From: Squalus acanthias
Taxonomy: Eukaryota
DNA: 64,000 bases
Direction of reading: 5' to 3'
Assembly (NCBI GenBank): GCA_030390025.1
Contig: CM059434.1
Coordinates: 43,648,001 to 43,712,000 of the forward strand
Shown: piece after piece, positions 3,310 through 63,449 of the stretch
How positions within the stretch are numbered: the first letter of the stretch is position 1
Layout: the number at the start of each line of letters is the position of its first letter
Translations under genes and position numbers: made by a program
The notes under the pieces: generated by a model
Database searches by the model: none
What the model saw: the letters and a program-made list of their open reading frames with translations, nothing else
Told to the model about the DNA's origin: nothing

Positions 3310-3613
3310 TCAGTTGGCACTGATGGCCTCCTGATTCTCATTGTCACTGCTATAGTCTGATTTCTGATCATCCTCATAGTCCTCGTACATTTCCATCTCA
3401 TCTTCGCCATTCATCATTTCGTTCATGCTCAGGTTGCCGCTTTCTCCCTTCATGCTGTAAGTGCTCTGGATGACTGGGATGGTTGGTTCTGGACTGCCGG
3501 ACTCACTGGAACACTCGGATGTCAGTTGTGGTGATGCTGCTGTGGTTGCCATGGAGATAGCACCGGGATACACTACGCCTGCTGCTGTGGTGATCGGAAT
3601 CTGAGGCTGTTGC
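3310..3613 (-). CDS. SOX6: SOX6 terminal coding exon (304 bp including TGA): [24 protein letters not shown]...[15 protein letters not shown]
   Basis: Acceptor gtgcatAG|G and stop at 3310-3312; the acidic C-terminus [14 protein letters not shown]...SDYSS...SAN matches SOX6. The six exons total 1227 nt, or 409 codons with no internal stop. Confidence 0.95.
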
Positions 3614-3744
3614 CTATGCACAGATGAACACTGGTTTGTTAGCAGCTGAAATCAACATATACATTTTTTATGAAGGCTGGTAGGCTTAACATTCAGCCTG
3701 CAAATCAGACCAGCACTGTACTTTATGCATCGCTAGCTTCACAA

Positions 3745-4450
3745 GATCAGAAGATAATTACGGATGAGCAAGGCCATTCGGCCCAATCTTAGTTCTTGCA
3801 TCCAACACTCCCCCCATTTCAGCGTCCAATTGTTTCCTAAATTATTCCAGGGTTGTTACCTCCGCTACCCTGTCTGGAAGTCTATTCCATAAGTTGATCA
3901 CTCTGTGTGCGGCAGAATTTCCTGATATTAATCCTAAAATTACTAGTTTTATCCTGTGTCCTCTTGTTCTACTCTTGCAATTTAATTTAAAGTAAATTTC
4001 CAGGTTTACCTTTTTCATTCCCTTAACAATCTTATATACTTCTAGTAGATCATGTCTCAGAAACCTTCCTTCTAGGCTGAAAAGTCCAGGTCTTTCCAGT
4101 CTTTCTTCATAACCGAGACCCCTGATACCAGAACTGGACGCAGTATTCAAGGAGTGGTCTGACTGGACCATTGTATAGTTTGATCACAACCTCCTCTGAT
4201 TTGCATTCTACAGTTTTGGCTATGTAGTTCAACATCCATCAGAGCTTTGCTGATTGCTGCTCTGAATTGGTTAGACATATTGAGCCTCAAGTGTACTAAG
4301 ACTCCTACATCACTTTCAGCTTCATCCTTAGCTATTTCAACACCAGTCATAGAGTACATGGGTCACCTATTTTCGTTTCCTATGTGCAGTACTTTACACT
4401 TATTTGCATTAAATTTCATCTGCCATTGTTCTGCCCAATCATCTATTCTT
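3745..4450 (-). mobile_element. Degenerate CR1-clade LINE 3' fragment; continues at about 6102-6230 after a nested insertion
   Basis: Minus-strand translation GLGYEERLERPGLFSLEGR...LLEVYKIVKG...TRGHRIKL...VINLWNRLP is typical of the CR1 ORF2 C-terminus; CR1-type 3' hairpin/tail near 3750-3790. Confidence 0.85.
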
Positions 4451-6101
4451 TTCACTATGGACGTCCAATCCCTCTACACCACCATCCCCCACCAGGACGG
4501 CCTGAGGGCGCTCCGCTTCTACTTGAACAGAGGCCCAACCAGTCCCCATCCACCACCACCCTCCTGAACTTGTTCTCACATTGAACAACTTCTCCTTTGA
4601 CTCCACTCACTTCCTCCAAATTAAAGGTGTTGCTATGGGAACCTGCATGGGCCCTAGCTATGCCTGCCTTTTCATGGGATATGTGGGACATTCTTTGTTC
4701 CAGTCCTACTCAGGTCCCCTCCCTCACCTCTTTTTCCGGTACATCGATGACTGTATCGGTGCCGTTTCCTGCTCGCGCCCTGAACTAGAAAAGTTCATTC
4801 ACTTTACTTCCAATTTCCACCCTTCCCTCACCTTCACATGGTCCATCTCCGACTCTTCTCTTCCCTTCCTTGACTTCTCTGTCTCCATTTCTGGCGATAG
4901 ACTATCAACAAAAATCCACTACAAGCCCACTGACTCCCACAGCTACCTGGACTACACTTCCTCCCACCCCGCTTCCTGTAAGGACTCTATTGCATTCTCC
5001 CAGTTTCTCCGTCTCCGCCGCGTCTGTTCTGACGATGCCACCTTCCATACCAGTGCTTCTGACATATCTTCCTTTTTCCTCAACCAAGGATTCCCCTCTA
5101 CTGTGGTTGACATGGCCCTTGACCATGTCCATTCCATTTCCCGCATTTCTGCTCTCACTCCCTTCCCCTCCCTCCCAGAATCATGATAGGGTTCCCCTTG
5201 TCCTCACCTTTCACCCCACCAGCCTCCACATTCAACGGATCATCCTCCGCCATTTCCGCCACCTCCAACGTGATCCCACCACCGAACGCATCTTCCCCTC
5301 ACCTCCCCTTTCAGCATTCCGAAGGGACTGCTCCCTCCGCTGGTCCTGGTCCACTCCTCAATCACCCCTAACAGCCCTTCCCCTTCGCCCGGCACCTTCC
5401 CGTGCAAGCGCAGGAGATGTAACACCTGCCCTTTTACCTCCTCCCTTCCCACTGTCCAGGGCCCCAAACACCCCTTCCAGGTGAAACAGCGATTTACTTG
5501 TCCTTCTTGCAATTTAGTATAGTGTATTCGCTGCTCATGATGCAGTCTCCTCTACATTGGGGAGACCAAACGCAGATTGGGCGACCGCTTTGCGGAACAC
5601 CTCCGTTCAGTCCGTAAGGGTGACCCTGAGCTTCCGGTCGCCTATCACTTTAATTCTCCGCTTCGCTCCCACTCTGATCTCTCTGTCCTCGGCCTCTTAC
5701 ATTGTTCCAATGAAGCTCAACGTAAGCTCGAAGAACAACACCTCATCTTTTGATTAGGCACTATACAGCCTTCTGGACTCAACATTGAGTTCAACAATTT
5801 CAGACTATAACCCCTGCCCCCATTTTTCAGGCTGTATGATTTTGCCATCCCCATTTGCAACATTTTATCTTTCCTGCCTCCTACCTTAGCACAGAATGTT
5901 CCTTCAGTTTCTTCCTCCCCTCCCACCACCACCCCCCCAACCCACCTCTCCCTGCCTCTGCACCTGCCTAAAATCTGTTACATTTCCAGCTTTTTCCAGT
6001 TCTGATGAAGGGTCCCAGACCTGAAACGTTAACTCTGTTTCTCTCTCCACGGATGCTGCCTGGCCTGCTGAGTGTTTCCAGCATTTTCTGTTGTTATTTT
6101 T
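4451..6101 (+). mobile_element. 5'-truncated, decayed Penelope-like retroelement (Neptune-type): RT, Cys linker, GIY-YIG endonuclease and 3' pLTR with hammerhead motif
   Basis: RT motifs MDVQSLYT, GVAMGTCMGPSYACLFM and RYIDD; linker GTFPCKRRRCNTCP (about 5391-5432); GIY-YIG segment LV*CIRCS*CSLLYIGETKRRLGDRFAEH; frameshifts and stops present. Confidence 0.92.
5998..6034 (+). ncRNA. Minimal type I hammerhead ribozyme motif in the Penelope pLTR
   Basis: Stem I AGTT/AACT; CTGATGA at 6002-6008; stem II GGGTC-CCA-GACCT; GAAA at 6023-6026; palindromic stem III region AACGTT. Confidence 0.75.
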
Positions 6102-7115
6102 ATCTATTTTGTTCAACTCTTTCAGTAATTTCTGAGCTGCCACTCCAATTCCACTGCCACTCCTAGTTTGGTACCATCTCTAAATCCAACTGCTTTGCAT
6201 TGAGTTTCTGAATCCAGGTCACTGATGTAACAGTACTGGTCCCAACACCAACCCTGACACACCTCACTTACTTCCCCCGACTCTGACATAACTCATCTAA
6301 CCAGAACATGCCCACTCACAAAATTTATCCTGAATCCCCACAGCTTTGAATTTAACTAATTGTCTTTTGTGTGGAATTTTAGTGTAAATGGAGATTTTGA
6401 TTATTTTCAAAGTGACATGCATCATTCTGCCAAAATCTTTGGGAAAGGGCAAAGGGGTGGTTGCATGTAATTATATCTGCCATAATTGTCAGAATAACTT
6501 TATTCCCATTTCAGCTAATTAACTCACTGGGTTGTAGGATAAAAATAAAACACTAAATAAAAATCAGACTGCCCTCATTAAATCAAAGCTATTATCCAGT
6601 CTCCATTTGTTCAGCAGGATATGGGTTAAGCAACCTCCTAATACAAAGAACAAGGGAGCTAACTGGTGCAGTAGGGTTGTGAATTTGGGAGGGGCGGTTA
6701 GTAATGTTCCCTCTAATTTTTTTTTGTGTGCGGTCCCTTTAACTGGCTGTGCAGCCCATTCAAACTTTTGTGCATGCGCAGTTTCTTCCATCTAAAAGCC
6801 GGTGAATGGCCTGCGCGGGACATCCAGACCGCTGCACGGTTGGTCTTGCTTTTTTTGCAGCGGGGCTAGTGTCCTTTAATGTCTGGGGTCTAAGTACAGC
6901 CCAGGCTGATGTGATTTCAGTCTCACTCTCCCTGCTGGGTGCAAGGGTCCAATATGGAATGAGTTCCAACACCCTAAACACAGTTCCCAGAAGATACAGG
7001 TTCACAGCACTAAGTCTCATCCTAAACTGGCAATCTTATTCAGAAAAGCCATAAGTATGGATTGTGTAAAAAATAGAATAATGTCACACTGATTCAGTTG
7101 GAAGCATTTTGAGAT

Positions 7116-8449
7116 TGTAAGGTTTCCAAAATTTGCAGATCCCCAAAACCTAAGGAAAAAGGACTTTGGAACAACCTGAGTGATAAAAATGAATTTGGGC
7201 CTAACATAAGGAATTTAAGACCAAAAACCAAGTTTTGGCATTTTATAAACATGTCTGGGCCTGTAAAGGGAGAAAAAGGCTGTGAAGGAAGTTGGGATCG
7301 ACCTCTGCAAAAGCAGTTTGGGTATTGCAGTTAATTGCAATGTCTGGGTAACCGGAATGACCTCACTCAAAGCCCCAGCAAGCATTAACATTTTGACAAT
7401 AGACCCTAGGAAGAGACAGCCCCACCCAAAACAACAGGTCCCATCAAACCGATTACAGAACCCATTAAAGACATGCATAAAGCAAATATTCGATCGAAGT
7501 CCTAGACCCAGTCAAGAAACCCAAAACATGAGGACAATTCAAACTCCGATTAAACAACAGATTGACAGGATGGAGCTATCCGGAAACCACTTCACACATT
7601 TACAAAACCAGTTAACACGCTAGTAAAGTCATTACTGTTAACGAGGTCTTACAATGACCGGGATTTGATTTGGTTTTGATAAGGCCACTTCAATTTAGTA
7701 TAATTGAAGGCCCATCAAGCAGTTCAAAAAAAAACAACAGTTCAAGTTCAACAGAAGGCAGTTCTGCAGTTCAACTTGAAAGCCTGTTTTCAGCAGAAGT
7801 CAGTGCTGAAATTACAGAGTTCAGGAGAAGCAAGTTGGGCAGTTAAAGAAGACAGTTCAGTAAGAAGGGAGTTCTCCAGTAAAACAGTTCAAGTTCAACA
7901 AGCAGGCAGAAGGCAGTTTCCACAGTTCTGCAAGAAGGCAGTTCCACAGCTCGGAAGAGGACAGTTTAAACAGAAAGCAGTTCAACAAAGAAAGCCAACA
8001 GCTCCAGAAGTAGGCCGACACGCAAGAAGAGACCAGAGCGACCGCCTCAGTGACCATCGGACACCTCGCGGCAACAAGGGCCTTACGAAACCTTTTACTC
8101 AAAAGACTCTAAACCCTAACTCTCAACTGTCAAGGATTCGTTTGGTGAGCATAATCCCTGGTTCTCCAGAGTCCAACCTAGCTAGTGAAGTGGGATTGGG
8201 AGGGGTGAAGTATTCTTCTAATGTTATTTCCCTCGTGTGTACCGAAGTGTTCCCCACCTTTAGAGTGTTTGTGTTGTGTTTTACTTTCTTGAATAAAGAT
8301 CGAAAATTCTTTCATCAAAACCTGTTGTCTACTGCACCTTTGTTCACAACCCCCAAATAAGTCCAAGGTCTAGAACCAGGGGCGTGGGAGCGATTCGAAC
8401 CGCTCACTGAGTCAGAGGTGAAGCTGACCCTACCACACCACCCCCTACA
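7116..8449 (+). mobile_element. Solo LTR (1334 bp) of an ERV or Gypsy-type element
   Basis: Termini TGTAAGG...CCCTACA; 4-bp TSD AGAT (7112-7115 and 8450-8453); TATA-like sequence near 7700; AATAAA at 8292-8297; internal short CAGTTC repeats. Confidence 0.8.
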
Positions 8450-17915: not shown

Positions 17916-19108
17916 GACTAACATGTGGCTCCCCCTCCCCACAGTGCTGCCCTTCTCCTTCAGTTGCTATCTGTCTCAGCAGTCCACAATACTTGATTCT
18001 GCAACAAGAATATTTGGAATGAAAACCACTTTGCCTGTGACTGGATAATCCCAGTGCCTGGAGATTTGATTGGTTTTCTATGATCATTAATCATTCCCCA
18101 TTATAAGTGTTTCTGAATCTAAATACTATTTATAATACCAATCCCTTAATTCCCTTTTTTCTCTGCTTAGTAAACTGAGCAGCACTCTCACCTAAGGTTT
18201 CACCACACTGCCAGCTAGCTAAACTGGTGGCTTTTTGTTTAGCAGGACAAGAAATTCAGGTTGATCACAGTAAAAAAAAAACTTTAAAGCTGTTAAACAT
18301 AAAAAGTGAAATGTAGGCTTTATCACTGTACTAAAAATATATAGCTCCAAAGTTACTAAAAAAAACATTCTTCTCCTTGCTCTCATCAACTGTTTAAAGA
18401 GCTAGTGAACGGAGGACACTGTTCAATGTACAATAACCAGTTGATGTTGTTAACCCTGCAGTTGAGTTAAAATAGGATTCCAATTGCTCTTTGCCACTGG
18501 GAATTAGTTGGTTGGGGTGTGGAAGGGCACTGGAGAAAAGACAAGATCAAGGTATATAGATGTAATCAACATTTAAACTTATTTTGCGAAACTGAGATCT
18601 ATGACAAGTACTTTCCATTTTTTCTGCCACATTCTTCTCTCCCACAGCACAACACAAATAACATAATTTTGCCTGTAAAGTCATTCACACCTAACTGCCT
18701 CCTACTGGCTCCCAGATGTCACTCACAGCAAAATGAGATGTGAATGGCCAAGAAAAACATACACAAGTTACCTTGCTTGTCTCTATTATCTTGCTGGTTA
18801 GATTAATCCAAATCTTTATCACACTGGGTAAAAAAAGTTCTTCCTGATATCTGTTCTAAACTTATTTGGCACTAATTTCCATTTATGTTTTCTGATCCTT
18901 CTGTCTTGACTTACTTTGAAGAAATAAACTGTTTAATCTACACCATCTAATATTTTATATACTTTGATGGCGTTCCCCTTAAGCACCTTCTTTCCAGACT
19001 GTAAAGATTATGCTTCTCATTGCTCATTCCCTTTACACTTGCGATCGGTCTTCTTCCCCTTTACTTTCGGTTTTATTACCTTAATTCAGAAAAAATATAC
19101 ACATATAG

Positions 19109-21468
19109 TCATAGAATCATAGAATGGTTACAGCACGGAAGAAGGCCATTCGGCCCGTCGAGCCCGTGCCGGCTCTCTGCAAGAGCCCTTCAGCTAATCC
19201 CACTCCCCTGCCCTTTCCCCGTAGCCCTGCAAATTTCTTTCCTTCAAATACTTATCCAACTCCCTTTTGAATGCTGTGATTGAGTCTGCCTCCACCACCC
19301 TTTCAGGCAGTGCAGTCCAGATCTTAACCACTCGCTGTGTAAAAAGGTTTTTTCTTACGTCGTCTTTGGACCTTTTGCCAATCACCTTAAATCTGTGTCC
19401 TCTGGTTCTCGACCCAATAGGAACAGTTTCCCTCTATCTACTCTGTCCAGACCCCTCTATCAAATCTCCTCTCAATCTTCTCTGCTCCAAGGAGAACAAC
19501 CCCAGCTTCTCCAGTCTATCAACGTAACTGAAGTCCCTCATTCCTGGAATCATTCTCGTAAATCGTTTCTGCACCCTCTCTAAGGCCTTCACATCCTTCC
19601 TAAAGTGTGATGCCCAGAATTGGACACAGTACTCCAGTTGGGGCTGAACCAGTGTTTTATACAGGTTCATCATAATTTTCACACTTTTGTACTCGATACC
19701 TCTATTCATGAAGCCCAGGATCCCTTAAGCCTTTTTAACTGCTTTCTCAACCTGCCCTGCCACCTTCAACGATTTGTGCACACATATCCCCAGGTCTCTC
19801 TGTTCGTGCACCCCCTTCAGGATTGTACCATTTAGTTCATATGTCCTCTCCTCATTCTTTCTACCAAAATGCATCTCTTCGCACTTTTCTGCGTTAAATT
19901 TCATCTGCCACGTGTCTGCCCATTCCACCAGCCTGTCTATGTCTTCCTAAAGTCTATCACTCTCCTCCTGACTGTTCACTATACTTCCAAGTTTTGTGTC
20001 ATCTGCAAATTTTGAAATTGTGCCCTGTACTCCCACATCCAAGTCATTAATATATATCAAGAAAAGCAGTGGTCCTAGAACCGACCCCTGGGAAACACCA
20101 CTGTATACCTTCCTCCAGGCCAAAAAAACAACCGTTCACCACTACTCTCTGTTTCCTGTCACTTAGCCAATTCCATATCCAGGCTGCCACTGTCCCTTTT
20201 ATTCCATGGGCTTCAACTTTGCTGGCAAGCCTATTATGTGGCACTTTGTCGAACACCTTTTGGAAATCCATGTACACTACGTCAACTGCATTACCCTCAT
20301 CAACCCTCTCTGTTACCTCATCAAAGAACTCAATCAAGTTAGTTAAACACGATTTGCCTTTAACAAATCCGTGCTGGCTTTCCTTAATTAATCCACACTT
20401 GTCCAAGTGACTATTAATTTTGTCTCTGATTACTGTTTCTAAAAGCTACCCCACTACTGAGGTCAAACTGTCCGGCCTATAGTTGCTGGGTTCATCTTTA
20501 CATCCTTTTTTGAACAATGGTGTAACATTTGTAATTCTCCAGTCCTCTAGCACCACCCTCGTATCGAAGGAGGATTGGAATATTATGGCCAGTACCTCCG
20601 CTATTTCCGCCATCAATTCCCTCAGCATCCTAGGATGCATCCCAGGATGCATCCCATCCACTCCTGGTGACTTATCTACTTTAAGTACAGCCAGCCTTTC
20701 CAATACCTCTTCTTTTTCAATTTTTATCCTATCAAGTATCTCCACTACCTCCTCCTTTACTATGTCTGTAGCAGCATCCTCATCCTTGGTGAAGACAGAT
20801 GCAAAGTACTCATTTAGTACCTCAGCCATACCCTCTGCCTCCATGCATAGGTCTCCTTTTTGGTCCCTAATCGGCCCCACCCCTCCTCTTACTACCCTTT
20901 TACTATCTATATGCCTATAGAAGACTTTTGGATTACCTTTAATGTTGGCTGCCATTCTATTCTCATACCCTCTCTTTGCCCCTCTTATTTTCTTTTTCAC
21001 TTTTCCTCTGACCTTTCTATATATAACCTGATTCTCAGATGTATTTGCAACCTGACATCTGTCATGCACGCTCTTTTTCTGCTTCATCATATTCTCTATC
21101 TCTTTCATCATCCAGGGAGCCCTGACTTTTGTTGCCCTGCCTTTCCCCCTAGTGGGAATGTACCTCAACTGTATCTGCACTATTTCCTCTTTAAAGGCAG
21201 CCCATGTTCCATTACAGTTTTGCCTGCCAATCTTTGATTCCATTTACCCGGGCCAGATCCGTTCTCATCCCACTGAAATTGGCCTTCCCCCAGTTAAACA
21301 TTTTTACTCCAGATTGCTCCCCGTCCTTTTCCATAGCTAATCTAAACCTTATGATACTATGATCACTGTTCCCTAAATGTTCACCTACTTGCTCCACTTG
21401 ACCTACCTCGTTCCCCAGAATCAAATCCAGCAATGCCTCCTCCCTCGTCGGGCCGGAAACATACTGAT
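19109..21468 (-). mobile_element. 5'-truncated, relatively young CR1-clade LINE (about 2.36 kb) with disrupted ORF2
   Basis: End of the endonuclease domain LDLILGN...HLGNSDH; RT segments KSPGVDGMHP, WRITNVTPLFKKG, SQHGFVKGKSCLTNLIEFF and VVYMDFQKVFDKVPH; (ATTCTATG)n tail at 19109-19128; several frameshifts. Sits beside an older CR1 relic at about 18800-19060. Confidence 0.95.
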
Positions 21469-21929
21469 CATTCAGTTTTACCCTGTTTCTCCAAGGATTC
21501 AGTGGAGCTTATGGCAGACAATTGAGAGAACTCTCACTCAAATCCAACCCCATAGTACATACAGGAGAATATCTTGGCACTTTGAAAATGTTCGCATGGT
21601 TTTCAGTGTAGGTATATGGGATGGACAGAATATCTGCCTTGAGTGACAGCAACAGGGTGTCATTACTACTAAGTGCAAAGTGTGTATTAAAATTCTAAAT
21701 ATCTATTCATAAATGTGGGTTAATTAATTGATTTATTGCACTACTGAAAGTCATTTTCTAACAGTTATCTATTGCGATTCAATTCTAGCGCAGGTTTTGC
21801 TCCACACTGACTCCATAGAGCTATGCAGCGTAACAATAATGATTTATATAAGTTGGGCAGCGTACTGTCAAAGGAAAGTGTTAGAGGGTATCCATAGTGT
21901 TGCTTGAAACATTTTCTTCAGCTACTCAC

Positions 21930-54964: not shown

Positions 54965-57620
54965 CTAGGGTAGGGATAAAATAGCAGTCATAAAATTCCC
55001 CAAGAAGGAAATGGGCTGACTTACAGCAAATGGTAGCTTACGACAAAATTAAAATTATTCTGACCCATAAAGGTCCTCTTTTTCCAATGCAACTTCCCCC
55101 TTGTGTAATAAACTACTCAGCCTACAGCAGATTCCTTTATAAACCATCTGTTGTCAAATTTAAAATATTCAATATGAAAAGTGTACTTTATCCCACAGTC
55201 AACATTGTTTTTCTTTCAAAAAAAACTCATTAAAACTGAGGCAAATTTGGATTCAGACGGGAATCTCCTGAAGCTGTTAATTATTAATGAAGCCATTCCT
55301 TTCAGTACATTATCTGGAACATTGATTCCTAAGAATGTGCTCCACACTGCCACAACCGTCTCTTGCAAATGGATTCGCACTTTTTAACTAGATGTATTAG
55401 ACCCTGTATCACTGACCCAATTCAGGTAATAGTAGAGTAGGCAAAGCTGAGAGAGCAGTTAAAACTACTTTTCCTGGCGCTGTTATTTTTTTTTTATGTA
55501 CATCACCTCTTTTCAAATGGTTTTAAAATAACCAATTTTTTTTTTAAAGATGTGAATTACTGAAGTGCGGTGATCTGTGTAGGGATATAGGACTTTTAGG
55601 TAATGAATAATGTTTCCCTCCGGACCCTGTTTTCCGTCGCATCAGTCAGGCTTTCTGCTGCTCATCACCCAAAGCCACTAAGCACTTTTCAATTATGTTC
55701 GGCGCCACTGCGTTAATCAAAACTACAAATTATTTTGAACTCTGTATTCCAAATGAGGACAAAAAAAAAAGCATTTAGGTTTTGCTCATTAATTCTTGCC
55801 CTTTTTTGACATATAGTAAAACACAATGCTAAAGGTGGGCCATTAGTTGGAGGGGAAAAAATACCTTCCAAGCTTCCAAGTTTAGTACATGCTAGAAACA
55901 GAGCAGCAAAACCTATGGGTAGGCAACTTATTTTTGCAATACTGTGATTCATGCAAATGTAACTATTCAGTCTATAGTATAGACAAGAAGTACTCACTAG
56001 GAATAATTCCTTGATCCCTTCCAGTGGGAAGCTTCACTCGACTATGTAGCCCCAGTGAGTGCAGGTCCCAGGAGTGGGAGATTCTGGAATTAGGCCTAAC
56101 TTTTTGTTGAGGGCCACAATCCTGAGAAGTAACTTGATTGATGACCACTCTCACAGAGCTACTATAAAGCTACTCCATTTTGGATTTTTTTTTAAAAGCA
56201 TTTTCCTTTTCTTTCTACCCACAGTCTCTCCTGAATCATAGCTCAAGTATCCCCTGAGAACTGGTGAGCTGTGTAATGATGCCCAGAGACACTTGGGGCA
56301 GCAGGTCTGCCAAGGCTCGCAGGTGAGGAGGAGGTTGGGTGCGAGCTGGTCCCTGTGCTGTATTATAAGTCTTACTGATATAGGCTGGCCCTGCGAAGGG
56401 CACAATGTTGCCACACGCTGTGATGCAGCAGGGAAAAAATGGATCACTACTAAAGGCCAAGTTATTTATAGATTAGATCAAAATGAGCAACTGTGTTACT
56501 GTGAGTATTGGAAGTATAAGCTGAGTCGCCAATTGATATTTGGCGATTGGATAATTATTCAATCAAATCTGATTACATGCCAGAAAATATAACATTTGAG
56601 TCCAACATGGATTAGCTGTAAATTTCCAAAGCTTTTGGAGTTAAGAGACAGAGACAAGAATAAACAATAATGCACTTTCATTTGTACATGCATTGCTCTT
56701 CTGCAGGATATAAGCTATCTACTAAAATGCGTTGCTGGTTATGGTCATGTTTTACACAACCTGTCTCTTATGCTAAGGAAAATCAATAGCCAAGCTTGTA
56801 ATTGTATTAGAGAAGCTTGAGTATATGTACAGTGTTTTTGATAAAAGTAAGCTGGATCTCATCCAACAGTCCCTGCTTCAGCATGGATATAAAGGATATG
56901 TCATGGCCAACAGTAGGATATGATCAATGTAATATTAGTTGCTAGTTTAAGAAATCATAACCTCTCTTTGAACTCAGGAAGTGGAAACATGTATGGGGGA
57001 GGGGGGAACAGACAGAATGATTTCACATATGCTCTTGAATTGTCAATAAACCTGTTTAATTTAAGCAACAGGACTCTCACCAATGCTTTAGATATCACAT
57101 GTAAGGCTTACAACACGTTTAACTGTGTGCTAAGTCAGTGGTGGTGGTGCTACACTGGTAAGAGTGAAGGTGATTTGAGGCTATTAACAAGATTAGGTTC
57201 AATGCCAGATTTGTTTTTTCTTCAGCACCTGAATCATCTAGTACCATAGGGCTAGATTTGATGAATTAGTACTCTTGGCTAATTAATGGTAAACTGTACA
57301 GGGCCAAATTCCCAGTATGCTTTCTCATGGCACAAAGCTCTGTGCTGAAAGCTCTAATTTGTAAAAACGTTCCCCAAAGAGCTCACCCTAGTTGGACTAG
57401 ACTGCAGAATCTTCTGACTTGTACAATGTTATTCACGTTTGATTGGCCGAAAAACGGTCAACTAGCAATACCAAAAAGAACACGTTTACAATTTCAGTAG
57501 AAATACTGACCACATGAAAACTTCACAATTACAATATCACTACATGTAGCATCTTGAGCAACACTTCTCTTGTGATGTTAAGAGTATAAAGATACCGCTT
57601 CATTCTCATTGTGCACTTAC

Positions 57621-57801
57621 CTAAAGATGATCCTCTTCCTGGTGTACCACCCACAGGGCTGGGGATGCTGCTTTTGTTGGGCAGGTTGACTGGACTGGAT
57701 TTATTTGTGTGGAAGAAGCTCTGGGTGGGTGATGTGGGGGATCGGATGGGCTCTGAAGTCTTGGGCCTCGCTGACAGATTGAGTGGCTGTGCTGCTTCAT
57801 C
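57621..57801 (-). CDS. SOX6: SOX6 coding exon, first in window (181 bp): [27 protein letters not shown]...GRGSSL
   Basis: Acceptor gttcgcAG|GAT and donor TTAG|gtaagt; the translation resembles vertebrate SOX6 as I recall it and carries the PLNLS CtBP-binding motif; phase 0 to phase 1 fits the next exon. Confidence 0.93.
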
Positions 57802-60654
57802 CTGCGAACGAACCATAAACAAGCATACTTTAGCACATTGAAGATCACATAACAACAATGTGATCTTCCAATCCTTGGAATCTAATCCAAACTGACATGT
57901 GCACATTTGAGGCAATTGGTGCCAGACCTAGTTTAATCAGGTGCCATTTTGATTCTGGTACGCACAAAAATAGTACAGCTGCACCATTCCTTTTTGTTTC
58001 TAAATCTATTTGCATACAAATGGATTGTTTTCCTTAGATCACAGAAATAATTTTTGGTTTTAACCTTATTCCACTTTAACCTGATTAACTTTAACCTGTT
58101 TAAATGAATCGAGCATTGTGATTACTACAGATAGAAAAGATTCTTAGTAGTTGACATTTACATTTCACACATGCATTTCATTTGTAAATAATGGTTGTAC
58201 TTCATATTAGAAAAATAACCTGGTAATTGGCAGCCAATACAATTTGAGAAGGAAGAGGCCCTGCCTGATCAACTTCCTGGGCTGTTTTTAAGGAACCGAC
58301 ATCCCAAATGGATGTTGGACAACCCCATCATGTAGTGTACCTAGAGTTCCAAAAAGTGTTTCATTAAGTTCCACAAGAATGGCTGCTGCGCAAGCTGAAG
58401 GAAGGGAGTATCCAAGGTGAAACCAGCTGAAATTTAGCTGAACGAGATGAAGCAGCGGATAATAGAGGAGTGATTTCAGACTGGGGAGATATACTTAAGG
58501 AAGTGCCCTGATGTTTGTGCTGGGCCCCAACTGCTTCTAATTTACATACACTGTATAGGATTTGCATCCAGAAGTACAATTCAAGTTGGCAAGATCTGCA
58601 GATGATACTAAAATAGAGGGGGATAGTTAAGTCTATTAAATCAGCCAAGGAGTTACATGGCTTGGTAATCTTGTTTTTAAATTGAAATCATTTAATAAGA
58701 CATCAAAAAAAAAGAAGTTTGTTAAATCCCAGACCTGCCTTCCCTGTCATTTGTTACCAAGCTCAATGACGTAATGGTAGACAATGGCTTGGTAGTTTGT
58801 AAAATGTAGTAACCTCTTATTAAAACACATCCCTCAGGATTCATACAAACCGCATTATAGGAAAGAGAGTGTTGTAGGAAAGAGAAACTTAACTACACAC
58901 ACCGCTAGAGAAAGCCATTCATTACTCACATTACAGCAGTGACCGCAGTATGACAGAGAGCAATGGTAAGCAGTTATTTACTGAAACTGCCTGAGCTTTC
59001 TCGTACATTGTAAAGCTAATTGCTTCTTTAAATTGTAAAGTCCAAATTATCAGAGGTGTACTGACAGAAACGATCATTGAAGCAATTTAGAAATATGCCA
59101 ATGTATATTTACATTGACATAAACAACCTGTACGTTAATGTTGTACATATTCTGAGGGGCATCGGTGTTGGGGTACACTGCCTATTTTATGGAAACATCG
59201 AGAGGTAGATTTTTAACTTTCATCGCTGGGTGGAAACCAGGCGGTAGCGGATCAGCCGCTCGTTATATACCCTGCCCAATTTTCCTTTCCATTGACTTTG
59301 AGTTTTCCTCCTGGTGGTGAAAATTAAAATCTACTGCCGATGTCAAGCTCTCTCAGGTCAAGTACAATAACGGCCAAAGTGAACTCGGGCTGCTCTGTCC
59401 AAACATGCTTTCTCCTCGGGCCTCACAAAAGCTCCACCTACTGCACCACTGTGACATTTCCATTTCCCACACCTTCTTTACTAAGACAGACAGAGTCAAT
59501 TTGGAGGGAAAATACAGGGGGTTTTATGCTGTGGGCCTGTTTCCATTAAGAACTGGGTTAAGGCTGTCCCTAACCCATTTCACAAAGGATCTTTTAAGCC
59601 AGAGGAGACTTTCATTGCATCGGTGTGTGCTGAAGTCAAACCTTAGACCCTACAGGTGTAAATGCGGTGTCCCCCACCCCAGTGCCACTCAATCTCCCAG
59701 CTAAAAGTGTCATTTAGAATAAAGAATTGAATTGACGGCTGCTCCACTGGCTCAGTTGGAAAATGCACTGTCCATTTGGACCAGAAAACCTGCCAGAATG
59801 TCCTCCCGTACTTCTGGGGTTATGGGGAAGGAGGGGGGAATGAATCAGGGTTCCTGCTCCTGATTACTATCAAATGACCCCAGGTGGAAAATGTGCTAGT
59901 GCGAATGGCAGAGGAGGACAGGAATCAATCTCAGCTACAGTGCTGTGCGTGGTAGAACAGCCTGCTGACAGTCACTATCTGGGCTCATACATGAAGAATT
60001 GTAGCTCACTTGGATGAGGTACCAGAAGTTGGCATATGCCCATGAAACTCTAATCCAGTGTAAATTGGAACCTTAGGAGAGGACAGGAGAAAACAGGTGG
60101 GGGGGGGGGGGTGTGGAGGGAACAGTAATTGATATGTATATTTTCTTTTAAAACTCTCATTTAAGATTGTGTGTTTGTGTATCTGCAACAAGAACAGAAA
60201 ATTGCTCCTTTGATAGTTTCAAAAAGCTGAGGTATTAACTGTGGTACATTGCATAGTTAATTGGAAAATACAGAATAACAAAGACTGAATACAACATCTG
60301 ATCATTCAGTTGGATGGTACTTTTTACCTCAGGGACAGAAATGGTTCTCTCCTGTAACATTCAAATAAGAAGCTAATTAGCCAATTCCTAAAAGATTTAA
60401 CTAAAGGAAGGCTCATTAGTCTCTCTCTGTACTTGCCTTTATTTACATAAGCACAGTAATTTTATTATTATAATGTCAGTGTTTACTCATGTTGACAAAT
60501 GTAATTTGGAACTAATGCACTTTGCAGTTCTAACTCTCCACTCAACTAAATCTGAAATGTATTCTAACTAGTATAAGCTAAATATCCAGTTGTGTATTCC
60601 TGTGTTCAAAGCTGAGTTTCTTTCCATGTATGTGTCTAATTTAACCATTTACCG

Positions 60655-61030
60655 TAGAACTCTCGCCTCTGGGTTAGAAGGTTGTAGGTTCAATTCAACA
60701 CTAACGCTTAAGCACATAACTTCGGTTGACACTCAGTGTAGTAATGAAGGAGTCCTGCATTGTTAGAGGTGCCGTTCTTCAGATTAGATATTAAACCAAG
60801 ATCCTAGTTCTGATGAAAGGTCCTCGACCTGAAACATTAACTCTATTTCTCTCCCCACAGAAGCTGCCTGACCTGCTGAGTATCTCCAGCATTTTCTGTT
60901 TTTATTTTATCCTAGCTATCTGTTCCAGTGGTTCAGGTGGATGATAAATATCCTATGGCACTATTTGAAGAAAAACGGAGTTCTCCCATTGTCCTATTCA
61001 ATATTCCTCCCTCAACTAACCTGATTAATG
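60655..61030 (+). mobile_element. Deu-domain SINE (SacSINE1-like) interrupted by a hammerhead-bearing insert
   Basis: Aligns by eye to 63450-63720 (gcctctg-gtcagaaggttgt-ggttcaa, agcacataa, gacact-cagtgyagta-tga, atccyatggcactatt-gaagaa). Confidence 0.75.
60808..60908 (+). mobile_element. 101-bp solo Penelope pLTR end with a minimal hammerhead motif and 7-bp TSD
   Basis: CTGATGA at 60810-60816, stem II AGGTC-CTC-GACCT, GAAA at 60831-60834; highly similar to 6000-6100; ATCCTAG at 60801-60807 and 60909-60915. Confidence 0.85.
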
Positions 61031-63064
61031 TTTGGTCCTTGCTCCCTCCACATCAGAGGCTGATTTTTCAATCATTATGCCACTGCCCTTCAAAATTCCC
61101 CTCCCAAAAATAACTCTACCTTGCTACTTCTCTTCCTGCCTTCAAAAAGCTCCTAAAGCTTTTTTCTTTGCCTCTCTTGCCCCTTCCCATCTAAACTTGT
61201 CTTATTCTTCTTCCATCTTTCTACCCTATTAAGTGTTCTGAAACAATTCCCTTGATGTGAGGGGTGCTGTCTAAATGCTAGACACTGATTGCTGTCCAGT
61301 GGCTTCTGCTAGAAGGTGTACATGGGTGGATGCAGCCAAGATCAGACTCAGCTGTGATGCCCCCATGGTCAAGTGGTCTATTGAACAATTGCTGTCGGGG
61401 TTCATAGATGAAGAGTGCCTACTTGGGCAAGGCAAGTATGCTGGCACATCTCAACATGAGTCATGTGTTTAGGAAACAAAGTAAGACGAGGGGGAGAAGG
61501 ACATTGAAAGGAAAGGTGCCCAAATTAGGTCCTGGAATAAGGATCATTGCAACACAGCAGAATGTTGAAATGGAGAGTTTAGGGCAAGACAAAAATGAAA
61601 GAGTTCAGTCACAACGGTGTTTAATCACTCTGTCATTTAGACTTTTAGGTTTTAGGGCAACACTTAGGATCTGAGTTTGCCTTTTCATTTACAACATTTT
61701 CTGAATAAACAAAATATTTATATCCTTAACAGTTAATTATTTGGTGCAAAAATGTTAACAATAATCTTCAAAAAGTAATTGCTCACCTTGTGGAATGCTC
61801 TTTATAATTGCATCATAAATCTCTAAGTGCCTGAAGCTTTGGGGGCATTATTTAAATATTATTTATTTTGCTTCATGCTCAACAAAGTGAGGAATAACTC
61901 CTCAGTACTGACTTTAATAAATTCGATTTGCATTTTCAGACCTGAACTGGGGACAGTTTTGTGCTGTATGTTCAAGCCCACTGAGAACTGGATAGACATG
62001 TATCCAAACTGATTGGATCTTTACCATCCTACAAGCCCAACTCGGATCAATTAGCGAGCTCAAAAGTCTTACTTAGCTTCAACTATATCCATTCTGCTCT
62101 GATCTGTATTTGTTTTCCTTTCTTTCTCGCTGATAACTCATGAGGGGAGTAGATTCTGTATGAGGCTTCAGCTAGCTGCAGGAGTGTTTACTCTTAAAAT
62201 GTTTCTTTCCTGCTTCAATTATGAGCATATTAGGTGATGTTGGTCTTTTCTACTTAAGTTAATTTCAGGGCTGCGCTCGTACTTGGAGGCTGCTGTTTTA
62301 ACTTCTCTTTAAGCAATTGTCAAACGTCTAAACTTTTATAGTGCTATTGCAATCGAACTGAATGAACATAAAGTTACTCTGAACTGGTATATCAATTTAA
62401 CATGCATTGTGTACCAACCACATAATAGCCAATCACATGAGCATTTTTGAAATTTTAAGATGAAATTATTTCAAATTTGTTTCAAATAATTCTATCTACC
62501 TTCCTTTCCTGTTTACAAAAATGACACATACACTATGCAGTGGGAATTGCAACATGTTCTGGGTTTTCTATGGCAATTGTCAATGTAATGTTACAACATT
62601 AAAGAACTTGCATTTATATAATGTCTTTCATGTCCTCAGGACATCCCAAAGCGCTTCACATCGATGAATTATTTTGACGTGTAGTCGCTGTTGTTATGTG
62701 GACAAAGAAGAGGCACTTGGATTCTGTCTTCTTTTGCTGTTCCTTCACACTGATTACTTCAACATTGCACAGCACTCCATCTAGAGGCTCAATTAAGAAG
62801 TGATAAACTCACCCTAGCAGTAAAGGTAGCCAAGGATTTCTGATCAGCAGTTGAGTGCTCAACTGCTTTAACAATAGGGGTATCTAATATTGTGATACCT
62901 CTGCTTTCTGCCAATAAGCTGTGCATTAGTGGTCTACTGTAAACCAAGGATACTGCACAAAACATGAAGGTCTATGTACTCCGAGGTTCAAGGAAATGTC
63001 AATTACAAAAAGAAACTGACCAAGGTTGAAGAGCAAAGATATGATGCATGTTCTGTAGCTAATT

Positions 63065-63295
63065 TGAGAAGTCGCACAACACCAGGTTATAGTCCAACAG
63101 TTTTATTTGAAATCACAAGCTTTCGGAGCGGCTGCTCCTTCGTCAGGTGAAGTGAAGTATCTCTTCACTTCACCTGACGAAGGAGCAGCCGCTCCGAAAG
63201 CTTGTGATTTCAAATAAAACTGTTGGACTATAACCTGGTGTTGTGCGACTTCTCACTTTTGTCCACCCCAGTCCAACACCGGCATCTCCGCATCA
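63065..63295. mobile_element. Young Penelope-type insertion: perfect 93-bp inverted repeat with a hammerhead motif in each arm, plus a 40-bp tail and 14-bp TSD
   Basis: Arms 63065-63157 and 63163-63255 are exact reverse complements; loop TATCT; TGTAGCTAATTTGA at 63054-63067 and 63296-63309. Confidence 0.88.
63170..63207 (+). ncRNA. Minimal type I hammerhead ribozyme motif (mirror copy on the minus strand at 63113-63150)
   Basis: Stem I TCAC/GTGA; CTGACGA at 63174-63180; stem II GGAGC-AGCC-GCTCC; GAAA at 63196-63199; palindrome AAGCTT; predicted cleavage after T63203. Confidence 0.8.
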
Positions 63296-63449
63296 TGTAG
63301 CTAATTTGATTACCCTTTTGATATTAGGCAAAACTTTCCCTCAGGATATTAAATAAATGTGATAGGGCCCATGTTTGGTACATTGTACATAAGCTATGAG
63401 CTCGATGGAATGAATGACCTTTTTCTGTTGAATGCTTTCTTTTGTCTCA

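Follow-up and report, generated by a model that had tools for sequence, protein, structure and literature searches.

A hairpin in a SoxD intron as a leader stub of a Neptune-type Penelope-like element, probably made by twin priming

Layout of the hairpin locus

Within a window of 64,000 nucleotides we analysed a hairpin with two arms of 93 nt each (63065-63157 and 63163-63255), which are complementary to each other at 100% and spaced by 5 nt. The unit is bounded by a 14-bp direct repeat, TGTAGCTAATTTGA, at 63054-63067 and 63296-63309. The whole insertion amounts to about 230 bp of 5' leader of a Penelope-like element (PLE) and has no ORF between the repeats. The features are the following.

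57529-57927, minus strand: open frame containing the exon that follows the hairpin-bearing intron in the host SoxD gene; the exon preceding this intron is located beyond the window (L097, 6899-7192)
63054-63067, plus strand: left target-site duplication, 14 bp; it closes with TGA, 3 nt that are shared with the RNA at the putative inner priming site
63065-63157, minus strand: inverted copy of the PLE 5' leader without tail, spanning about -40 to -131 as counted from the parent ATG; 97.8% identical to L093 over 93 nt
63113-63150, minus strand: left-arm motif of the minimal type I hammerhead, in sense orientation on the strand of the SOX6 pre-mRNA; called by pattern and predicted to be locked in the 93-bp duplex
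63157-63255, plus strand: sense copy of the PLE 5' leader, starting at -137; contains TATCT (63158-63162) and the presumed main transcription start (63167)
63170-63207, plus strand: minimal type I hammerhead of the right arm, called by sequence, pattern and fold
63256-63297, plus strand: PLE tail of 40 nt ending in the parent ATG (63295-63297), from which full-length copies run into the ORF
63296-63309, plus strand: right target-site duplication; its first 2 nt are shared with the ATG

The two 93-bp arms, the 5-nt spacing, the 40-nt tail, the 14-bp duplication and a hammerhead core in each arm had all been described in a first-pass annotation, and all are borne out. The 5 nt had also been called a loop, which they are not: TATCT is templated pLTR sequence (columns -137 to -131 of the family consensus, GTAT[T/C][C/T]CTTCAC), so that the sense copy begins at 63157/63158. 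The duplication overlaps the left arm by 3 nt, as had been noted, and on the right it additionally overlaps the parent ATG by 2 nt (63296-63297). The copy ends at -137 (sense) and -131 (inverted), past the presumed main start at -127, and probably derived from a rarer upstream start or from read-through RNA.

Host gene and empty site

The host is a minus-strand SoxD gene, the HMG exon of which has SOX5 as its best match (5e-20). An ESM Atlas search with the last SoxD exon returned no name. We take the peptides of the flanking exons (57529-57927; L097, 6899-7192) to be consecutive exons of SOX6, the gene named in the first-pass annotation. Just past the end of the window, the same intron holds an LTR-retrotransposon-like element (L097, 1264-5594) with a 989-aa gag-protease-RT frame, a 335-aa integrase frame and repeated ends, presumably Gypsy-like. 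Fragments of a LINE reverse transcriptase, which we take to be CR1/L2-like, lie at 19000-21500 on the minus strand of the window.

A search for an empty allele had been proposed, and one is present in organism C (run X7), where a contig joins 63053 to 63296 with a single copy of the duplication and 90 and 439 letters on either side. Both insertion junctions were found in organism A (run X1), reaching 20 and 25 letters into the element, which is below our 31-letter rule. The left junction was found in organism B (run X5), in a contig that reaches only 15 letters past the duplication. In run X6 neither junction was covered by a contig. The insertion is likely common to organisms A and B. In the shares of the tail-start variants (63254-63257) the three organisms differ from one another, which suggests that the element has subfamilies specific to each species.

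A parent element with an intact reading frame

The right arm and tail are 97% identical to the 140 nt preceding the ATG of locus L093. Continuation of the tail into ATGGCCACTA occurs at 267 loci genome-wide; among 30 such loci, six share at least 1.5 kb of downstream ORF. From the tail-end ATG of L093 runs an uninterrupted ORF of 892 aa, and in the other five of the six loci it is broken. The L093 ORF matches RVT_1 (E 1.3e-8). Its protein has a GIY-YIG-like end recognized by eye (VVY-CRKGC-YIG and downstream histidines), as expected of the GIY-YIG endonuclease with CCHH that marks EN+ PLEs; a Pfam search of the 892-aa protein did not detect the GIY-YIG domain. A 775-bp direct repeat around the ORF, which forms the pLTRs, makes L093 a partial tandem, and L091, L092, L094 and L095 are similar. 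The PLE origin proposed by the first-pass annotation has thereby gained a parent.

The parent protein P0001 contains a CX4CxxC linker, CHGNLCKTC, and a CX2-5CxxC zinc-finger linker between RT and EN marks Neptune and Nematis (PMC8557442). Judged from its sequence, the hairpin is a 5'-leader stub of a Neptune-type PLE, the clade being assigned from the linker, a marker shared with Nematis. The family has the RT/GIY-YIG ORF, the partial tandem, the inverted truncated copy with a one-sided tail and the duplication with an empty site that define EN+ PLEs, and the inverted terminal segment plus tail agrees with the earlier description. An inverted pLTR with a one-sided tail and a duplication is already published PLE anatomy (PMC3846280, PMC8557442).

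Other PLE sequences were noted on the way. A second Neptune-type family is represented on the plus strand at 4451-6101 by a PLE that is broken and truncated at its 5' end and has a hammerhead-like motif of its own near 6003-6035; compared with the parent it has 32% amino-acid identity over 196 aa and DNA similarity over only 49 bp, and the two families are distinct, as had been stated. At about 60810-60845 (plus strand), in what is apparently a solo pLTR fragment, there is another hammerhead-like motif, similar to the one in the 4451-6101 family. Locus L096 contains, beside the sampled copy, a second and more diverged PLE copy (about 3350-7720) with three arm-tail units and several plus-strand frames. 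L048, L200 and L203 belong to a related subfamily whose hammerhead has a longer loop on stem II.

Anatomy across copies

The copy count that the first-pass annotation had suggested gives 8,148 matches to the exact 43-nt arm-tail junction in the 3.7-Gb genome (control 0). We sampled the first 100 listed matches, which are consecutive and all on C1, and two of which (L032, L034) look like one segmental duplicate. An inverted arm is present at 74 of the 100 loci, and in 63 of those both arms lie within -140. Tails end at 0 to +3 in 63 of the 91 loci with an anchor, and among copies with an anchor, 55 have the outer end of the inverted arm between -42 and -31. The duplications measure 12-14 bp in 48 of 68 hairpins (mode 12 bp; 72% AT) and are individual in 56 of 68; overlaps of 0-3 nt between duplication and element ends are common among the sampled copies. 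Exactly one tail was found in 46 of 47 hairpins and two tails in none; this count comes from 60 loci picked by tail-blind junction patterns (47 hairpins, 12 loci without partner, 1 without anchor).

Arms without any substitution occur in 18 of 74 hairpins (111 differences in 5,599 columns, indels not counted), compared with 16% expected by chance. Perfect arms are therefore unremarkable, and the earlier reading of absent divergence as a sign of special youth is not supported; the left junction is, moreover, found in organism B.

Some loci depart from the common form. At L156 the inverted arm is about 570 nt long and the sense arm short, and at L190 one arm starts with G at -127, opposite a long inverted segment that extends into the 3' end of the ORF. 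The two arms may have been copied from separate pLTRs of one tandem RNA, or each from an RNA of its own. L069, L072 and L195 have a new leader, beginning at or close to -127, directly behind the ORF's first 60 nt. Such an arrangement would result if the reverse transcriptase jumped from a capped RNA end to about +60 of another RNA, a possible route to tandems.

The hammerhead motif

The hammerhead core pattern has one match in each arm (63174-63199, plus strand; 63121-63146, minus strand) and none in 100 shuffles. In the right arm it is composed of stem I (TCAC/GTGA), the core CTGACGA, an extra A, stem II (GGAGC/GCTCC), GAAA, GC and TT, with a predicted cut between 63203 and 63204. By the definition of a minimal type I hammerhead that we adopted (PMC4209133), the motif has the core CUGANGA/GAAA/UH, helices I and II, G10.1-C11.1 and a palindromic 15.2-16.2; it is without a stable helix III. 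This anatomy had been correctly named in the first pass, including a palindromic stem III, the palindrome being AGCU rather than AAGCUU. The outer A and U are presumably the core positions A14 and H17, and the H17 position varies across the family (89 T, 4 C).

An Rfam scan of the hairpin gave no hammerhead match at E ≤ 1, and the ribozyme call therefore rests on motif anatomy. A single arm folded alone is no more stable than its shuffles (z -0.1 to -1.4). For the pre-mRNA strand, a fold energy of -214.8 kcal/mol is predicted for 361 nt with the 93-bp duplex, and the hammerhead stems have probabilities of 0.000 against this duplex, versus about 0.33 in the isolated arm with tail. The hammerhead is thus predicted to be locked in the pre-mRNA duplex, in line with the earlier prediction and as a by-product of the head-to-head geometry. 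A hand-drawn dimer hammerhead gained no thermodynamic support (-23.3 kcal/mol, compared with -24.2 for a pair of monomers and -32.3 for a cofold of another shape), the energy model being ill-suited to it.

The predicted cut lies at -91, and 379 arms start there in the raw counts, compared with 197 at -93, 100 at -90 and 188 at -89. When pattern degeneracy is corrected for, with all bases taken as equally frequent, the counts become about 1,011 versus 350, 267 and 334. Among the -91 starts inspected, 10 of 30 share 2-4 nt of microhomology with the partner, mostly in stem I, and two are internal insertions; stem I microhomology also drains the starts at -90 and -89. With this microhomology allowed for, arms begin at the predicted cut about threefold more often than at the preceding neighbours and about twofold more often than at the following ones. 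The excess, which microhomology confounds, is no more than suggestive of in vivo hammerhead cleavage of a minority of templates.

A capped sense RNA as the probable template

The commonest single 5' end is -127, found in 19 of 100 sense arms and located 3 nt before hammerhead stem I. It lies about 30 nt after a TATA-like stretch near -160 in the pLTR, and we take the motif at -127 to be initiator-like. Reverse transcription of a cap usually leaves an untemplated G at the 5' end. Genome-wide, -127 is preceded by G in 3,305 arms, by A in 382 and by the templated C or T in 20,196. The G at -127 starts only about 14% of hammerhead-bearing arms (3,305 of 23,883), many others, the studied copy included, being shorter or starting further upstream. 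Upstream continuation of the pLTR was seen in none of 30 G loci read, and 17 of the 30 Gs could equally be the next base of the partner arm. In the tail-blind set, G precedes 16 of 18 ends at -127, compared with 21 of 50 other ends (p 7e-4). At -91, the first 30 matches are preceded by A in 19 cases and by G in 11; since A exceeds G there, the G excess is not generic. The template was probably a capped sense RNA with the hammerhead among its first nucleotides. The promoter of Penelope has been placed in the pLTR (PMC2377424).

Probable insertion by twin priming

We consider it probable that the hairpin is a PLE 5'-leader stub made by twin priming, in which both nicked strands prime on the sense RNA and the two cDNAs are joined head to head. 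The single tail in 46 of 47 hairpins, the 12-14-bp duplications, the untemplated G at a fixed 5' end, in some hairpins on both arms, and arms that derive from more than one source variant speak for this route rather than for fold-back. The endonuclease would cut both target strands with a stagger of about 12 nt. The RNA would be capped, mostly uncleaved and transcribed from the pLTR promoter, with -127 as the main start and -137 as a rarer recurring end. One target strand would prime at the ATG end of the tail and the other about 40 nt upstream, near -40, and the tail (63256-63297) would be the stretch between the two reverse-transcription start sites. Both cDNAs would then extend towards the cap and be joined at their 3' ends, usually with one source variant serving both arms and sometimes with two RNAs. 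The duplication overlaps, TGA and TG at the two ends, fit pairing between target and RNA at priming. Priming at the first tail would copy only the 130-nt leader, so that stubs would outnumber ORF-bearing copies and tandem transcripts would be needed to move the ORF. In vitro, the protein of an anole PLE cuts both strands and extends each of them, with synthesis starting at two internal sites, one at either end of the tail; it uses uncleaved RNA and is a predicted dimer (PMC11167929). Less in keeping with twin priming at paired sites, that study saw no start-site difference between the strands and no need for homology, whereas overlaps of 0-3 nt are common here (PMC11167929). Whether the two sites (ATG end and -40) form an obligate pair on capped sense RNA, with nicks about 12 nt apart, two RNAs in some insertions and hammerhead-cut templates in a minority, appears to us evenly balanced.

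Unlikely, in our view, is a fold-back origin, in which one cDNA or antisense RNA primes itself, second-strand cleavage trims one tail and the centre is later scrambled by deletions. For head-to-head PLE palindromes, an antisense template that primes itself has been proposed (PMC3846280), and the agreement between arms points the same way: an A/G site with a 50:50 distribution is concordant in 66 of 75 hairpins, and three rare variants are shared by both arms. The nine discordant hairpins (9/75) compare with a background of 26 in 1,634 (1.6%) and with 37.5 expected if the arms were independent; agreement is so far above independent draws that the use of two RNAs is not general. Fold-back may still account for some copies, since central deletion and gene conversion may have acted on them. 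Loop II is discordant in 13 of 32 hairpins, all 13 involving a short variant, and these differences may be slippage; co-discordance of two sites is not significant (p 0.28). Against fold-back stand tail-less arms that carry their own G at -127 opposite a shorter tailed partner (L170, L171, L176), and three hairpins with the extra G on both arms (L228-L230), in one of which, L228, the arms differ at two family-polymorphic sites. The arms of L073 likewise carry three linked differences, and an additional G located where the sense sequence begins suggests that the template was sense and capped. In favour of twin priming, the arms are not nested: the inverted arm extends beyond the sense arm in the 5' direction by 5 nt or more in 24 hairpins, the reverse holds in 24, and the two are level in 26 (n = 74). 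Central palindrome deletions after insertion could mimic such non-nested arms, which counts against twin priming.

It is improbable that this otherwise ordinary stub has taken on a role for its host within the SOX6 intron, whether as a dsRNA substrate for editing or small RNAs or as a splicing modulator. The predicted 93-bp duplex on the pre-mRNA strand, with its energy of -214.8 kcal/mol for 361 nt, and the likely sharing of the insertion by organisms A and B would accord with such a role. However, the insertion is absent in organism C, the arm identity is within the family range (18 of 74 unsubstituted) and thousands of equivalent hairpins exist. Contigs of four putative RNA runs showed no A>G or T>C change at 10% or more; they cover the repeat and leave its unique flanks uncovered, so this result is not locus-specific. 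The ADAR editing and Dicer processing suggested in the first-pass annotation gain no support. The SOX6-intron copy is presumably a neutral passenger.

We regard as very improbable a non-autonomous hairpin, MITE-like or retrozyme-like, that is transcribed, spreads as a unit and carries a self-muting ribozyme. Non-autonomous PLE derivatives and retrozymes exist (PMC8557442, bioRxiv 10.64898/2026.07.22.740005), and the 40 best matches to the whole element are all hairpins with a tail. Yet the centres of the hairpins vary between copies in the C1 sample, and that of the studied hairpin, which the first-pass annotation had thought might recur as a unit, occurs once genome-wide, a relaxed pattern finding five look-alikes in 3.7 Gb in both orientations. 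The hairpin therefore formed anew at each insertion. In addition, the stub is without the TATA-like stretch, and retrozymes are head-to-tail tandems whereas the hairpin is head to head. The self-muting cassette that had been envisaged is not supported, since the head-to-head geometry follows from copying and minimal PLE hammerheads are reported to be inactive as monomers or without protein (PMC4209133, PMC11167929).

An assembly artefact is scarcely credible, because, although no contig crosses the whole hairpin in the runs examined, the same anatomy recurs with individual duplications in 56 of 68 hairpins, organism C has an empty site with a single duplication copy and run X1 contains both junctions.

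How PLE inverted repeats originate and what the PLE hammerhead does have been called open questions (PMC3846280, PMC8557442, PMC11167929). If true, the paired-site reading would replace the antisense self-priming model and explain why tandem transcripts are needed for ORF movement, and it would provide in vivo evidence of PLE hammerhead cleavage. As a single locus the hairpin is ordinary; the family is a countable record of PLE insertion. With an intact young ORF (L093), predicted priming sites, stagger, start and cut site, and thousands of products, twin priming, the use of two RNAs and in vivo cleavage can be tested directly. The near-perfect hairpins of 60-100 bp, which number in the thousands, could moreover be a major source of dsRNA and of instability at palindromes. 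In the openly accessible literature searched, we found nothing on this family, on a cap-derived G, on paired priming sites or on twin priming in PLE insertions.

Comparison with known systems

In L1 twin priming, both target strands prime on the RNA and the cDNAs join by microhomology, which gives an inversion. The twin-primed arms of L1 copy different parts of the RNA, whereas both arms here copy the same stretch from two fixed sites.

The hammerhead resembles minimal PLE hammerheads in its core, the extra nucleotide before stem II, G10.1-C11.1, the 4-bp helix I and the palindromic 15.2-16.2, and differs in that helix II has 5 bp instead of 7-8 and the motif lies 3 nt after the presumed cap (PMC4209133). 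Dual hammerhead motifs on opposite strands, 100-700 bp apart, are described for Schistosoma (PMC4209133). Non-LTR retrozymes are likewise non-coding, PLE-derived and equipped with a type I hammerhead, but form head-to-tail tandems, whereas the present hairpins are head to head and are not copied as a unit (bioRxiv 10.64898/2026.07.22.740005).

EN+ PLE insertions (Pen2a_Av, PMC3846280; scheme in PMC8557442; Penelope of D. virilis, PMC2377424) share the head-to-head, inverted, 5'-truncated pLTR and the duplication, as well as the one-sided tail of 30-40 bp, the pLTR hammerhead and the partial-tandem parent. In contrast to these insertions (PMC3846280), the stub form without ORF is the majority here, at 63 of the 100 sampled loci, and the duplication mode is 12 bp compared with 8-10 bp in A. 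vaga (PMC3846280).

PAc, the Poseidon element of Anolis carolinensis, is alike in its two start sites bounding an AC-rich tail, the extension of both strands, the AT-rich targets (72% AT here) and uncleaved RNA as the main template (PMC11167929). In contrast to PAc, the present family has a Neptune-type linker, and its hammerhead and tail precede the ATG rather than lying inside the ORF (PMC11167929). In the portion of the PAc study available to us, the word 'inverted' is used only for a blocking nucleotide and a pairing of sites is unreported (PMC11167929), whereas here each insertion combines one outer and one inner site (46 of 47).
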